Origin: a virus
Lineage: Duplodnaviria; Heunggongvirae; Uroviricota; Caudoviricetes
Strand: one strand, 5' to 3'
DNA: 64,000 nucleotides
IMG/VR virus record: IMGVR_UViG_2721755662_000004
Positions 2,517-7,262 of the stretch are shown piece after piece. Position 1 is the first letter of the stretch. Each line of letters opens with the position of its first letter. The notes under the pieces were generated by a model that saw nothing but the letters and a program-made list of their open reading frames with translations, did no database searches and was not told where the DNA came from. Position numbers and translations under genes: made by a program.

Positions 2517-4585
2517 GATTTATCACCTTCGAAATTTTCAAGCCTGTTGGCAATCATGATGGCGATATCAGGGATTGCTGGCGCTGTGGCTATACATGCG
2601 GGGTTGGCGCACAAACCATAGACGGCGGCAATCACGAGCTGTCTTTTCCAGTCGAGAGTTACTGGCTCAGAATTGGCGTCATCGCCGGACGTATCACTGC
2701 CTGGCTCGTTCTGAACAACGGTTTCGCCCTCCTGAGCGGCATCAACAGAGTTTTCCTGAATGATCTTCTCCTCAGTTTGTGCTGAGTCTTCTCCATCAGC
2801 GGCGTCATTTTCTCCAAAAGTTTCAGCGTAAGTTTCATCTCCCATTACTGGACCACAGTCAGGGCAATGGCCGCCACCGTTCTGACTGCATGTGGTGCAA
2901 ACCTTTTCCACTTCCTGTTGCATTACTGGCCCTGGCTGTTGCTCTTCTGGCCCGTTTTGTTGCGTATCCGGGCTGTTTTGTCCCGCTTCTGGGGCAATTT
3001 GTTCCACTTTGGGCTGATTCTGGTCCTCAGTGTCGCGAGTCTGGATCCCCTTCACCCACTTCGGATCAGCAGGGTTACTGATGCCTTCAACGAATTCTCC
3101 ACGCGAGGCAGCCAGTAATTTGTCGGCATCGACTGGATTTTTTGGGGGGATGTTTTCCCTGGCTTTATTGAGTTCCTCCCTCAGTTCCTGGTATTTCGTT
3201 TCTACAGATGAGACATTTTCCAGTGATTGCGTGTCCTCATTATGTTTAACTGGAATTTCTTCCACTGATTCAGGCGCTGCCTGTTCATTAGCCATTGTGT
3301 CCGATGTTTGTTGCTTTTCTTCATCGCCATGTTTTCCTTCTGCTGTTCCGCGCTGCGGCATCGGTGCTGATGAGCGACCGCAGGCAATTTCCACGATTTC
3401 CGGATCCGGGTTAGCGTGATCGGTTTCGGTCAACACTTTGTTGAGATATTCAGTCACGCGTGCCGGGATGGCCTCAATGCCGATTGGTGCTTCTTTCACG
3501 GAAGCCACCACAATGGCGCGGGAATAATCCAGCCCACCGGGCATGGCGATAAATTTGTCGCGAAAAACAGAAAAGGGCGGCTTATTCTCTGACACGATTT
3601 CTTCAACGCGTTTTGCGTGTGCTGGGTGCAGGTTATAAATATCCACATCCATTGAACGGGCCAGAACGCCGGTGGCTACATCTCGTGCGAGTGATGTCTT
3701 ATCATGTTTGAATCCTTCACCACGATCGGTAATATTTCCGCCGCCAGCGTTAGCACCGGAAGGCGTACGGGTAATGCCTGAAACATAATTTCCGTTCTGC
3801 CATTCTTTTGTCAGCAGGCCCTGATCAAGGTAGTCAGTTTTCATCCAGGTGGAAATGAACTTGTCGAATTCAGCCGGGCTGATGCGATGATTTGCAGAGT
3901 GGGGGAATGCTTTCCCTACAGATTCAGCCAGGCGACTAAGGTGATAGTTCGTCAGTTTATCCAGTTCATGATGCGCGGCGCGCACAGCAGTAAGCAGGCT
4001 CTGAAGGTAACTGTCCTCTGTGTCCATCTCCATACGGATCACGTTATTGCGTTGTTCTGGTGTGGCATGATGCCGGTATTTTCCATCTTCATCTTTGCTG
4101 AATAAGAAGAGGTGAAGGAAGCGATGAGTAAGGCTCAGAGTGGCGACGGGAATTTCACACTCAGAACAGTCATCGTCGCTGTCCGGGGATTCGCTTTTCT
4201 CCACATCATCCGGAATAGTTCCGTCCAGGTTATCGTTGTCATCGCCAGCAGTTGTGGCATCTTCACCGTTGATGTTGTCATCGAAGGGGATAGCCATCAT
4301 GGTGATGCCATCGTTACCGCCTTTTTCATAGCGGTTGCAGAATTCAGTATCAAACACGCCTTCCGGTGGAAGGTCATTCACGACGGGGAAATTTACGCGA
4401 ACGGGTTTTTTGAAATCATCCTCGTCGTAGCCTGCATCGTCCATGGCTGCAATGCAGCGGGAAACTGCGACAGAAAGTTTTCTGGCCTCGGTCCAGAAAA
4501 AACCGCCTTTGATGCCAAGGCGTTTTCTGACTTTATCGTTTTTTGCTTCGCAGTGTAGTGCAAAAGTCTGTTTATCAGCGCTCAT
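2513..4585 (-). CDS. Large acidic hypothetical protein with C-x2-C-x7-C-x2-C motif, in kil/cIII position
   Basis: 690-aa ORF translationally coupled to gam; long Asp/Glu-rich tracts; [16 protein letters not shown] motif; hydrophobic C-terminal tail; no ATPase or nuclease motif seen. Confidence 0.7.
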
Positions 4586-4692
4586 TGTATTTAAACCTCT
4601 GGCTGGATTAGAATTAGCGACCCTTTGTCTGATTTCTCCGAATACGGTGACGCAGGGAGAAATCCGGTAGCCTGCGCTGCCGGATTTTTATT

Positions 4693-5079
4693 TCAGTGGA
4701 AGGTTGCCTGGTTTGCTGTTTTGTGAGTTGTTTTTCCCTTTTCGTGCTGGCATTCAGGGCAGTCGCACTCAGAATTTTCTCTTGCAAACTCAAGAGCCTG
4801 TGCAAGTGTATGGATTTGTTGTACTCCAATGTTGCTTCTGACAACTTCACGTGCAGCATGAATATATGGGCTTGGTGTTTTGCCATTTAACCCACATAAA
4901 ACAAAACGACTGTCCTTATATTCGTTATTTCCAACTTCTGTAAGCACTGAAAAAGAAAATACAAAGTCGATTTTGTATTCTTTGCATATTTTACTGATGC
5001 GTTCTGCAATTTCTTTGAGTTCATTTATTGCATCAGGACTGGTTTTGGAAAATATTTCATTTTGCGCAAGTTCTTTCAT
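4693..5079 (-). CDS. Hypothetical Cys-motif protein (AT-rich accessory gene)
   Basis: 128-aa ORF in AT-rich stretch; C-terminal ECDCPECQHEKGK motif. Confidence 0.45.
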   Translation of the reverse strand: MKELAQNEIFSKTSPDAINELKEIAERISKICKEYKIDFVFSFSVLTEVGNNEYKDSRFVLCGLNGKTPSPYIHAAREVVRSNIGVQQIHTLAQALEFARENSECDCPECQHEKGKTTHKTANQATFH

Positions 5080-5162
5080 TTTGATTTTTCCGTGATTGAT
5101 AATTAATGCGGTTTTATTTCGGCTTGTCTGTTACAGATATGGAAGGTGTATTTTATTACTCG

Positions 5163-5402
5163 TCACAACGACGCTGCTTTTACGGGTAAGCCATCGCGCC
5201 CGATGAAAACTTTAATCATGCAGTCGGTAATGCATGTTTTTGTTGTGAAGTTACGAATATAGAGTTTTCTCTTTTCAATATTGTTTGCTGAAGCGATATA
5301 TGTCCGACCTTCATGAAGAACATAATCGCCAGGCGTCACGCACTGACGTGGTATTTCATCAGTTCCGAAGTGATGAGCAATCATAATTATCTCCATTTTC
5401 AC
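5163..5402 (-). CDS. Hypothetical protein
   Basis: 79-aa ORF, AT-rich, same strand as PL operon. Confidence 0.35.
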
Positions 5403-5840
5403 AAATGAACTTTGTTGATGCGGTGCCTGGTGCCTCCAGGTGACGTTAACCAGTTAACAACTAACGCCGGGTCAGGGGACGATGACTTTCCGTGACATCC
5501 TGTCGGTTTAACTGTTCCGCGTGCGCATAGCCGCATTCACCGCATCACAAAATTCACTTTAAAAAGGGCGGACATCAGCAATCGGCAAACCGATATCCGC
5601 CAAGGGTTACACACAGCAATGTTGTTATTCACAACCGGAAGCGCACGGTCGAAGAAATCTAACGACAATCCTTCTATGGGAAAGAGTCTTCGCCTCGCGC
5701 TTTCGTGTAGTACCCTGGCTTTCAGGGTAATGTCTGTTCAGTAAACTGAGAGTGCAGGAACTCACCCGTGTCCGGCGCACGATCTCCACCTCACCCGTGG
5801 AGAACTCCTCAACTACAAACCCCGTAAGGAGAGTGAATTT

Positions 5841-6050
5841 ATGACACAAGAAGAAAAAGTGATGTTTCTGATGCGGCTGGCTGTCGATACTTACAACACA
5901 CAATTTACGGAGAAAGATATACCTCAAAAGGCAGTTCCTGCCGCGGTAGATAAGGGCGGTGCTATTGCCGTATTTTACGATGCATTTGAATCATTTTTTA
6001 ATGAAAAACTCGACGCTGTTAGCGACTTCGGAACATCGAGTAATAAATAA
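5841..6050 (+). CDS. Hypothetical small protein (opposite strand to PL operon)
   Basis: 69-aa ORF with AAGGAG-like SD 8 nt upstream of ATG; preceded by about 430 bp of non-coding sequence. Confidence 0.4.
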   Translation: MTQEEKVMFLMRLAVDTYNTQFTEKDIPQKAVPAAVDKGGAIAVFYDAFESFFNEKLDAVSDFGTSSNK

Positions 6051-6399
6051 CGTTCATTACGGTTCTTAAACAACAATCAGTGGGCTTGATGTTGTTCTTT
6101 TCAAGCTCACTTGCCATCACTTCCATTATTCTTGCACTTACACGAATTATTTGGTGGCTGTAAGCGACGCAACTGTCGCTGATATTGCTGTTTATTTCTA
6201 TTACTTCATTTTCACTGGCGGCGCTAAATTTGGATATGCCGTTTCCATTGTCCTGTTTCAGTGCTGTTTCCGCTATCCGGATGCGTTCCTGCGTTGCGGA
6301 ATTTGGGCTAAGTCGATAAACCTGTCTGGCATCTTCCAGAAGCAGGGCGATAATGTGCTTCAGTTCTGTTTCATTCATAGTTAACTCCGGTAGTTGCAA
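6019..6399 (-). CDS. Hypothetical protein
   Basis: 126-aa ORF convergent with 5841..6050. Confidence 0.4.
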   Translation of the reverse strand: MQLPELTMNETELKHIIALLLEDARQVYRLSPNSATQERIRIAETALKQDNGNGISKFSAASENEVIEINSNISDSCVAYSHQIIRVSARIMEVMASELEKNNIKPTDCCLRTVMNVIYYSMFRSR

Positions 6400-6409
6400 T
6401 TTATTAATA

Positions 6410-6595
6410 TCAGGCGGTCAGCTCTTTAAGCTTCTGAACTGCTTTATTCATTTCATCCATACAGTCGATGAATTCGTCCAGTTTAAGCTGCATTTTTCCG
6501 GCGGCCTGAAGAATTTCAAGTTTTAAGGGCGCAAGTTTTTTGTTGTAATCGACGCAGGTTATTAACTCGCGGCCAGTAATATTTTGGCTTGGCAC
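6410..6595 (-). CDS. Hypothetical small coiled-coil-like protein
   Basis: 61-aa ORF; overlaps 3' end of 6516..6800 in another frame so only one may be real. Confidence 0.3.
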   Translation of the reverse strand: MPSQNITGRELITCVDYNKKLAPLKLEILQAAGKMQLKLDEFIDCMDEMNKAVQKLKELTA

Positions 6596-6800
6596 GAGAT
6601 CCGGGTCTTGAACCTACACAAACTATATAGCTCTCTTCTTTCCTCGGAAGGCCAGGTGCATCTAGCAGACGGCCTAGTTCGAATTTTTTTACGTTGACAC
6701 CAGGAGGAATCACCTCGACGATAAACCCGATTTTTACCTTCGTTACACCGTTTGATGAGCTTGACCATTTAACTTCATCGTTCAATTTGAACTTCATCAT
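6516..6800 (-). CDS. Hypothetical protein immediately downstream of N
   Basis: Internal start MMKFKLNDEVKW... directly after N stop; protein-like N-terminal half. Confidence 0.35.
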   Translation of the reverse strand: MMKFKLNDEVKWSSSSNGVTKVKIGFIVEVIPPGVNVKKFELGRLLDAPGLPRKEESYIVCVGSRPGSRAKPKYYWPRVNNLRRLQQKTCALKT

Positions 6801-6805
6801 TAACC

Positions 6806-7111
6806 TCAATCGTAATAAGCCGGAATTGATTTTCCGCGTTGTTTCTGGCGGCCTGAGCAAGTCACACCCATTTCACTGCGTGGTTTGCGGTAGTAAATAC
6901 GGTTCTGTTTACTCTCGACTTCTTCTGCCTTCTTGCAGCGAAGGCTTCCGAGTGATACTGCTTTGTCTGCTCCGACGCAACCAGAGATCTTTAGCGCAAT
7001 CTTCCGTGTCAGTCTTTCACTACTGCGCCGCTCTGCAATAAGTTCTTCCCTGCGAGCTTTATAGCGGCTTTTTGCCGTACCTTTGGATTCTTTCCAGATT
7101 ATGGTTACCAT
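6806..7111 (-). CDS. N: Antitermination protein N (phage 21 type)
   Basis: From ATG at 7111 with GGAG SD: MVTIIWKESKGTAKSRYKARREELIAERR..., C-terminus GVTCSGRQKQRGKSIP resembles lambda N C-terminus GITCSGRQKIKGKSIP. Confidence 0.85.
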   Translation of the reverse strand: MVTIIWKESKGTAKSRYKARREELIAERRSSERLTRKIALKISGCVGADKAVSLGSLRCKKAEEVESKQNRIYYRKPRSEMGVTCSGRQKQRGKSIPAYYD

Positions 7112-7221: not shown

Positions 7222-7262
7222 TCTCAACGGTTAGGTTGAGAGTCCATCAATGTTAAAGAGCC
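7222..7262 (-). promoter_or_regulatory. nutL: boxA (GGCTCTTTAACA) followed by boxB hairpin (TCTCAACCTAACCGTTGAGA) on the leftward transcript
   Basis: boxA consensus-like element then 7-bp stem hairpin about 110-150 nt upstream of N. Confidence 0.55.

Follow-up and report, generated by a model that had tools for sequence, protein, structure and literature searches.

A DicF-like, terminator-like hairpin and an STnc100-like leader as the probable control region of a kil gene in a lambdoid Escherichia coli prophage

The non-coding stretch upstream of a kil gene was analysed in 64,000 nucleotides (nt) of tailed-phage DNA (Caudoviricetes; IMG/VR record IMGVR_UViG_2721755662_000004), hereafter called the window. 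An initial annotation had described positions 4586-6400 as an AT-rich accessory block with small open reading frames (ORFs) of unknown function on both strands and about 430 base pairs (bp) without a convincing ORF, and had proposed that the block holds morons or an unannotated RNA. Our analysis indicates that the block is probably the segment around kil in the leftward early operon of a lambdoid E. coli prophage, an operon transcribed from pL under N antitermination. The gap of 456 bp in front of kil is likely to represent RNA-level machinery of this operon, acting in the minus-strand sense. The arrangement as a whole can, with fair confidence, be read as a divergent, sub-threshold member of the known prophage module consisting of a DicF-type RNA, a leader and kil. 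The features that carry this reading are the following.

5385-5840: non-coding gap, 456 bp
5630-5840, minus strand: conserved structured element in the distal half of the gap, about 210 nt
5561-5636, minus strand: DicF-like element with a hairpin at 5567-5601 and a U5 tract at 5561-5565
5385-5564, minus strand: STnc100-like leader of kil, about 180 nt
5163-5384, minus strand: kil, 73 amino acids (aa), with a GGAG ribosome-binding site at 5391-5394

Identification of kil and of two RNA family matches upstream of it

The 73-aa protein matched the Kil/KilR family NF008465 of NCBIfam (PF27398) over residues 1-72 of 73 with 154.9 bits against a cut-off of 92 (E-value 4e-46) as well as phrog_294, "Kil" (E 8e-36), and it is annotated as kil or Kil in the identical RefSeq and phage records. 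Judged from its protein family, 5163-5384 is a KilR-type gene for an inhibitor of FtsZ and cell division. The description of the small ORFs as being of unknown function did not hold for this gene, whereas it did for the other three in the block, which encode 128, 69 and 119 aa and matched families of hypothetical proteins only. The ORFs themselves were found on both strands as described (128-aa ORF, kil and 119-aa ORF on the minus strand, 69-aa ORF on the plus strand).

The gap was scanned with the Rfam covariance models in a permissive mode, in which matches under the gathering cut-offs were included. Two minus-strand matches adjoin each other head to tail. One is to DicF (RF00039; 5566-5615), with 29.2 bits, an E-value of 0.0016 and model positions 1-52 covered; the other is to STnc100 (RF02076; 5370-5564), with 31 bits (E 4e-4), and spans the full model (1-206). 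Both are below the cut-offs of their families, and the parts retrieved of the identical RefSeq region and of the phage records carry no RNA annotation. The suggestion of an unannotated RNA, which was to be followed up by exactly this kind of search, was supported in the form of a DicF-family hairpin and an STnc100-like leader. The gap folds strongly as a whole in the minus sense (z-score of -4.9 against shuffled sequences).

The DicF-like hairpin

The DicF-like element begins with a conserved, single-stranded 5' part (…AACAUUGCUGUGUGUAACCCUU). It is followed by the hairpin at 5567-5601, whose 13-bp stem (GGCGGAUAUCGGU/GCUGAUGUCCGCC) contains the GGCGG…CCGCC pairing and leads directly into the five uridines at 5561-5565. 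The folding energy of this hairpin is about -22 kcal/mol (z -4.7), and its stem is preserved via compensating changes among 20 sequences. Two features of DicF are present. One is the GC-rich GGCGG…CCGCC terminator hairpin followed by a U tract; the other is the location in an early operon, where about 190 nt with a conserved leader separate the element from a division-inhibitor gene downstream. In sequence, the hairpin with its U5 tract reads as an intrinsic terminator and a candidate small RNA.

A third feature of DicF is missing. The 3' part of canonical DicF pairs with ftsZ (PMC5069750); the segment concerned (loop and 3' part, …UUUUACUCCG…) is replaced by UUGCCGAUUGCUGAUG in the window. 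The canonical loop segment AGUUUUACUCCG (ACUCCG), which aligns with the ribosome-binding region of ftsZ, is absent from the window variant. Complementarity to positions -45 to +20 of ftsZ was not above that of shuffled sequences for the window variant (P 0.84), canonical DicF itself reaching only P 0.30. RNAduplex and ungapped complementarity of the DicF variants against ftsZ positions -80 to +40 did not exceed shuffles either, canonical DicF included. Because the loop and the 3' arm that pair with ftsZ have been replaced, the targets of the window RNA, if it acts in trans, are probably different from those of canonical DicF. A primary DicF-like transcript starting from its own minus-strand promoter was also considered and rejected, as the manually picked candidates lacked the -11 A.

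It is conceivable, though we would not call it probable, that the hairpin is only a tL-type terminator or processing signal acting in cis, without any small RNA acting in trans, and that its similarity to DicF reflects a shared terminator ancestry. The score far under the DicF cut-off agrees with such a role, as do the loop sequences, which vary freely among the relatives, and the complementarity to the ftsZ translation start, which is no better than that of shuffles; moreover, the loop and 3' arm have been replaced, and this region is held in a perfect stem of 13 bp. The 5' part of the element points in the other direction. Its single-stranded segment (AACAUUGCUGUGUGUAG/A) is conserved across the Rac-type and the window-type elements despite their differing hairpins, and the succession of 5' seed, terminator and U tract is the layout of Hfq-type small RNAs and of DicF (PMC9438474).

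The structured leader of kil

Immediately after the U tract, positions 5538-5564 pair with 5396-5425 in a long-range helix of 26 bp, which encloses three hairpins (one of them CCUGG-AGGCA-CCAGG at 5426-5440) and ends four bases before the GGAG of kil. A consensus fold of the leader was computed with RNAalifold from 20 sequences, and controls were obtained by sliding the partners. In the leader fold, 98.4% of the cells are paired, compared with 36-48% in the slid controls, and six pairs have changed on both sides, compared with 0-3 in the controls. The fold is strand-specific, because it contains many G·U pairs, which are possible only in the minus sense. Of 5426 complete E. coli genomes, 4616 (85%) carried the core of the leader, mostly at about 80-87% identity and not in near-identical form, whereas the entire window-type gap was found in 76 of them (about 1.4%).

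A terminator, RNase E and RNase III all take part in the published biogenesis of DicF, and RNase III gives rise to a 72-nt form; the 3' end of this form lies 19 nt past the end of a 53-nt species (PMC5069750, PMC9438474). Mapped to the homologous sequence of the window, this published end falls within the 5' arm of the 26-bp duplex. On this ground we infer that the duplex is an RNase III site that separates the small RNA from the mRNA of kil (or of dicB).

Relatives in the DicF slot

For comparison, about 90 loci encoding Kil relatives were collected together with annotated Rac and Qin-like loci, and 40 distinct upstream regions were aligned. They share one architecture, which starts with a 5' part of either the Rac/window type or the Qin type, continues with the GGCGG…CCGCC hairpin with a variable loop, U5 and a near-invariant AAAGUGAAUUUUGUGAUGCGGUGAAUGCGGCUAAGCGCACGCGG, and ends with a variable stretch of 40-70 nt, a near-invariant CCGGCGUUAAUUGUUAACUGGUUAACGUCACCUGGAGGCACCAGGCACCGCAUC and the ribosome-binding site of kil or dicB. 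Ten of the loci were scanned with Rfam. The DicF scores at this slot were 61 bits in a Qin-like locus (before a truncated dicB pseudogene), 61 bits in locus L084 (before kil), 43, 39 (Rac of K-12), 36, 34 and 29.5 bits, and nine of the ten loci also had an STnc100-like match of 28-44 bits at the corresponding place. The pair of DicF and STnc100 matches recurs before kilR in Rac of K-12, before kil in IMG/VR prophages and before dicB in Qin-like prophages. This gradation of DicF scores from 61 to 29 bits at a single slot suggests that the window element is the divergent end of a continuum of elements that fill the DicF slot.

The modules are reassorted among the loci: canonical DicF occurs with kil (L084) and the Rac-type hairpin with dicB (L081). 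Such reassortment would also be expected if the conservation of the gap were a by-product of mosaic recombination, the gap being a lambdoid "linker" without function past the terminator. The extent of the conserved block fits this idea as well, since the block continues into the first 15 or so codons of the 69-aa ORF, after which divergence jumps. A mere linker would nevertheless hardly account for the compensatory changes in leader and hairpin, for a folding energy that is very strong relative to shuffles, or for a leader core kept in most E. coli genomes at the intermediate identity given above. We consider this explanation unlikely.

Two further observations were made at the slot. In Rac of an E. 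coli K-12 MG1655 derivative (locus L004, 2686-2741), the 39-bit DicF-like element, which is below the cut-off, and an STnc100-like leader stand directly before kilR, and this element is not annotated in the RefSeq record. In three Qin-like loci with dicB (L097-L099, at about 3690-3800), an extra insert of about 110 nt, compared with the window type, lies between the conserved CCGGUUGUG and the hairpin of the slot; this hairpin, GGCGGGUAUCCG…CAUGAUACCCGCC, is another variant of loop and stem. Sequences resembling dicF in Rac were reportedly described in 1994-96. Reviews credit commensal E. coli, K-12 included, with one copy of dicF (PMC7873438).

Position in the early-left operon

A prophage of E. 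coli FORC_069 matches the region at 100% identity, and phage PhiR5_2 does so at 97%. The minus strand carries the early-left genes, namely an N-like gene with a nutL site (boxA and boxB), kil, a RecE-family gene, gam, bet and exo. Read from right to left, the order is nutL, the N-like gene, two small ORFs, the 119-aa ORF, the 69-aa ORF on the plus strand, the gap, kil, the 128-aa ORF, the RecE-family gene of 690 aa and then gam, bet and exo. The features surrounding the gap and kil are the following.

7222-7262, minus strand: nutL, upstream of the N-like gene, with boxA GCUCUUUAACA and the boxB hairpin UCUCAACCUAACCGUUGAGA, read directly from the sequence
6806-7111, minus strand: N-like gene (phrog_271, E 7.6e-35)
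6019-6378, minus strand: 119-aa ORFan (phrog_2982, E 8e-78)
5841-6050, plus strand: 69-aa ORFan, antisense to the pL operon (phrog_2605, full-length, E 9e-45)
4693-5079, minus strand: 128-aa ORFan with the ECDCPECQ motif (phrog_2016, full-length, E 1.9e-78)

The two small ORFs next to the N-like gene overlap each other on the minus strand. The 94-aa ORF at 6516-6800 matched phrog_11941 over its full length (E 3.5e-46) and is unannotated in the identical RefSeq region; the 61-aa ORF at 6410-6595 corresponds to the C-terminal remnant of a gene of 229-237 aa that is intact in PhiR5_2 and in locus L094. Positions 6410-6800 look like a mosaic or deletion junction.

Composition and coding status of the gap

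With a GC content of 0.431 against a window mean of 0.50, the block ranks within the lowest 5% of 1815-nt windows, which agrees with its description as AT-rich. This low GC is confined to the ORFs (0.38 for the 128-aa ORF, 0.405 for the 69-aa ORF, 0.42 for kil and 0.43 for the 119-aa ORF); the AT-richness is thus a property of the genes and not of the gap, whose GC of 0.50-0.51 is average for the window. The picture of an independent AT-rich island has to be abandoned in favour of a gap that, on our reading, is the cis-acting and processing part of the kil transcription unit.

That upstream of the 69-aa gene a stretch lacks any convincing ORF was confirmed, 456 bp (5385-5840) being free of a credible one. 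ORFs lying wholly within it are limited to 41-45 aa, and a 100-aa ORF with a TTG start (5625-5927, minus strand) overlaps its right part. Small proteins encoded by these mechanically called ORFs are hardly credible: single-base indels occur inside them among near-identical relatives, and they have neither a ribosome-binding site nor a family match nor an annotation in any record. The 100-aa ORF was rejected as a gene, since these single-base indels shift its frame among close relatives.

The distal structured element

The distal half of the gap (5630-5840) was compared in 12 distinct relatives, Qin-like loci included. It is conserved at about 85-100%, whereas the adjacent plus-strand ORF is saturated at synonymous sites; in the Qin-like loci, the protein encoded by this ORF retains only 44-47% amino-acid identity, and the synonymous rate (dS) is saturated. 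The element is kept even where the ORF has been replaced by another one (L037). Two of its hairpins (5784-5802 and 5754-5776) carry a common CACGGGUGAG loop, a further hairpin lies at about 5711-5729, and a 21-bp helix pairs 5690-5712 with 5630-5652. This helix is 97.6% paired in the minus sense and 90.5% in the plus sense; six of its pairs vary on one side only and remain paired as G·U in the minus sense, whereas they are broken in the plus sense. This gives a weak hint that the element is a minus-sense RNA. It may be part of the pL transcript, or the promoter and 5' untranslated region of the plus-strand gene, or both.

Two exact direct-repeat copies of CTCACCCGTG (5761-5770 and 5790-5799, plus strand) stand 29 nt apart just upstream of the ribosome-binding site of the 69-aa gene, where they make up the loops of two neighbouring hairpins. 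The copies may serve as a loop motif of an RNA or as a repeat bound by a protein. In the latter case, the gap might act chiefly at the DNA level, as a divergent promoter and operator region from which kil is transcribed leftward and the 69-aa gene rightward. The back-to-back arrangement of the two genes, the position of the repeats, an invariant TAAACT (5743-5748) and the persistence of the element after replacement of the plus-strand ORF are all compatible with this view. A scan of the gap (5385-5840), on the other hand, revealed no sigma-70-like consensus promoter on either strand, RNA covariation was seen in the leader half together with G·U pairs that form in the minus sense alone, the one-sided changes in the 21-bp helix are G·U-compatible in the minus sense only, and the homologous leader of Qin sits within a polycistronic transcript (PMC5069750). 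A control region acting mainly as DNA is in our opinion rather unlikely.

The plus-strand 69-aa gene

The 69-aa ORF is preceded by an AAGGAG ribosome-binding site and encodes an acidic, helical protein with fifteen homologues, whose identity reaches as low as 47% and of which all named ones come from E. coli. The first 15 residues do not vary, and the first 15 codons show synonymous changes only. The ratio of non-synonymous to synonymous substitutions (dN/dS) of 0.29-0.39 demonstrates purifying selection. On the basis of this ratio of about 0.3 and of the purely synonymous changes in the first 15 codons, the comparison of sequences indicates that the ORF is a real coding gene.

Members of the family at 58% and 47% identity are likewise encoded on the opposite strand in this slot, at a distance of 450-570 nt upstream of kil or dicB. 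In Rac the slot holds sieB, in L037 another ORF and elsewhere divergent members of the family; when the opposite-strand ORFs of the slot were surveyed, spurious antisense ORFs dominated the outcome. The gene shows the marks of a moron, i.e. location on the opposite strand, a GC content of 0.405 against 0.50 and a slot with variable content. Owing to the sieB slot, the opposite orientation and the low GC, it fits a separately transcribed accessory gene and is a candidate moron. The proposal of morons in the block fits this gene, which is in addition under purifying selection, and not the remainder of the block. The 69-aa gene ends inside the convergent 119-aa gene, the 3' ends overlapping by 32 nt, and no terminator of its own was identified.

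The comparison with the exclusion and antirestriction genes ral and sieB of lambda, made in the initial annotation, found no support, as none of the ORFs of the block (4586-6400) matched a SieB, Ral or PADLOC model. The 69-aa protein in particular was rejected as a SieB or Ral homologue, having no such match in Pfam, PHROGs, NCBIfam or PADLOC. A sequence search of the Protein Data Bank (PDB) gave no match for it. Its AlphaFold2 model is a simple two-helix hairpin of low confidence (predicted local distance difference test score, pLDDT, 64; predicted template modelling score, pTM, 0.30).

The 128-aa and 119-aa ORFans and other RNA elements

Structure and homology searches, recommended earlier for each small protein, identified kil and led to hypothetical families for the others. 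In the 128-aa protein, the ECDCPECQ motif noted earlier was located in the C-terminal part at residues 104-111, of which C107 and C110 are invariant in the family (58-100% identity, named matches all E. coli). A profile search against 1.84 billion representatives returned its own family and one marginal match only; Foldseek with the AlphaFold2 model (pLDDT 67, pTM 0.58) against BFVD found nothing at E <0.4, and a PDB sequence search found nothing. There is a weak match to a YnfU-like zinc motif (E 0.045). A relationship to YdaE of Rac was considered and dropped, the two proteins showing no similarity. The matches of the 119-aa protein are hypothetical proteins at 65-100% identity, the named ones from E. 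coli or Shigella, and no Pfam, NCBIfam or PADLOC family was found for it. The PADLOC defence models matched none of the ORFs in the block. The three ORFans are candidates for host-interaction functions.

Further RNA elements were observed elsewhere in the window. A match to the sok antitoxin RNA (13503-13677, plus strand, 110 bits) implies a toxin-antitoxin locus of the hok/sok type in the prophage. Two sets of isrK, C4 antisense RNA and a1/b1 target matches (15542-15740 and 17127-17325, plus strand) correspond to a duplicated P1/P7-like control module of the c4 type for immunity and antirepressor; a pair of isrK and C4 also stands beside DicF in the Qin-like locus L005. Finally, sRNA-Xcc1 matches occur near the right end of the window (59696-59785 and 60579-60664, minus strand, 68 and 73 bits).

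Proposed mechanism and its weighing

The homology with the biogenesis of dicBF transcripts in Qin (PMC5069750, PMC9438474) and with termination and read-through at kilR of Rac (PMC5793797, PMC10798246) leads us to the following proposal. Polymerase coming from N would transcribe in turn the structured element of about 210 nt, the DicF-family element and the duplex-closed leader of about 180 nt. Without N, transcription would stop at the hairpin, acting as a tL-type terminator, so that the toxic kil and the recombination genes would stay silent. With N, the modified polymerase would read through the hairpin. Cleavage of the leader duplex by RNase III, together with a cut further upstream by RNase E, would then release a DicF-like RNA of about 60-80 nt and set the 5' end of the processed kil mRNA. 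The released RNA may have a role in trans, and the 69-aa gene may be expressed independently of these events.

Several results weigh against this interpretation. The scores of 29.2 and 31 bits do not assign the elements to their families, the gathering cut-offs being 48 bits for DicF and 47 bits for STnc100. A scan for consensus terminators did not list the hairpin at 5567-5601, whose 9-nt loop is outside the rule of the scan. The plus sense of the gap folds well too (z -4.7). No pairs changed on both sides were found when covariation was sought in 5630-5840 on both strands, and the evidence for an RNA role of this element, and for its strand, is weak. The ftsZ-pairing test is powerless even for canonical DicF. 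Finally, the 69-aa gene has no consensus sigma-70 promoter; the best candidate is the invariant TAAACT, with a poor -35 region.

A wider and more speculative reading, unlikely when taken as a whole, combines three proposals. The elements in the DicF slot would form a diversified repertoire of prophage small RNAs, in which a common terminator scaffold and an RNase III release leader are combined with swapped seeds and loops, each with host targets of its own; the window type would be one of its uncharacterised members. The STnc100-type fold would be a general release device of lambdoid phages, located after terminators that are subject to antitermination (here tL; in the late region, tR'), which frees terminator-type small RNAs from read-through transcripts and sets the 5' end of the downstream mRNA. 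The 210-nt element and the opposite-strand 69-aa gene with its invariant 15-residue N-terminus would constitute an undescribed cassette with a regulatory or exclusion role.

The preferred reading, a divergent DicF-type module, explains 456 bp that are unannotated and apparently empty as the control region of a gene for a toxic division inhibitor. It also shows that the standard Rfam thresholds miss divergent elements in the DicF slot, including one in Rac of K-12. If such elements act in trans, E. coli strains hold more prophage small-RNA regulators than are annotated. The likeness of the kil and dicB leaders to STnc100/PasD, moreover, connects two groups of prophage RNAs which were considered separately until now.

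Comparison with known systems

One parallel is the tL, N and kil-cIII region of lambda. In lambda, the toxic kil is held off in the lysogen; as proposed for the window, an intrinsic terminator of the pL operon lies between N and the kil and recombination genes and is overridden by N and nut. Lambda Kil is not known to be related in sequence to KilR, and no DicF-type RNA or STnc100-like leader is known at this place in lambda.

Across the full model, the leader has the same outline of the fold as STnc100/PasD. The core motifs GGUGAAU…UCACCNGGAGGCACCNGGCACC are also common to the two, and both come after a putative intrinsic terminator in an antiterminated lambdoid operon. The canonical location of STnc100 is the late region near Q/stx (PMC12370729; bioRxiv 10.64898/2026.05.13.724894), whereas the kil leader is found in the early-left operon, directly upstream of kil and not downstream of Q/stx. 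It further differs from STnc100 in its score of only 31 bits, in a closing helix of 26 bp instead of about 9 bp and in running straight into a coding gene. A bona fide STnc100 is present in the late region of the same window (20467-20672, plus strand, 165 bits). It lies about 60 nt past a terminator-like hairpin (at about 20380-20408) downstream of a putative Q gene. The phage thus has two paralogous copies of the STnc100-type fold, with the GGUGAAU…UCACCNGGAGGCACCNGGCACC core in both. The STnc100 preprint (bioRxiv 10.64898/2026.05.13.724894) mentions neither DicF nor kil, so the kinship with the kil and dicB leader seems to have gone unremarked there.

In the kilR-sieB region of Rac (K-12), kilR on the minus strand, a gap of about 440 nt with the 39-bit DicF-like hairpin and a leader, and then an opposite-strand gene follow each other as in the window, a stretch of 267 nt being about 80% identical. 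Termination keeps kilR of Rac silent (PMC5793797), and read-through leads to its expression (PMC5793797, PMC10798246). Rac differs from the window in having sieB (162 aa) in the opposite-strand slot, ydaE after kilR in place of the 128-aa ORFan and a longer hairpin loop; in addition, its gap has diverged in the distal half, and it has no N/nut system in the vicinity.

The dicF-dicB region of Qin (Kim) in K-12, containing the dicBF operon, differs by having dicB downstream instead of kil and a DicF score of 61 instead of 29 bits. The 5' part, the hairpin loop and the 3' arm are different, the ACUCCG loop segment being absent from the window, and ydfABC is located upstream in Qin, whereas the window has the opposite-strand ORF and the 210-nt structured element. 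In both, a terminator-type RNA with GGCGG…CCGCC and U5 is followed by a leader of about 190 nt with the sequence AAAGUGAAUUUUGUGAUGCGGUGAAUGCGG…CACCUGGAGGCACCAGGCACCGCAUC and by a division-inhibitor gene, all within a leftward early operon, and in Qin the published RNase III site lies in the duplex homologous to that of the window (PMC5069750).

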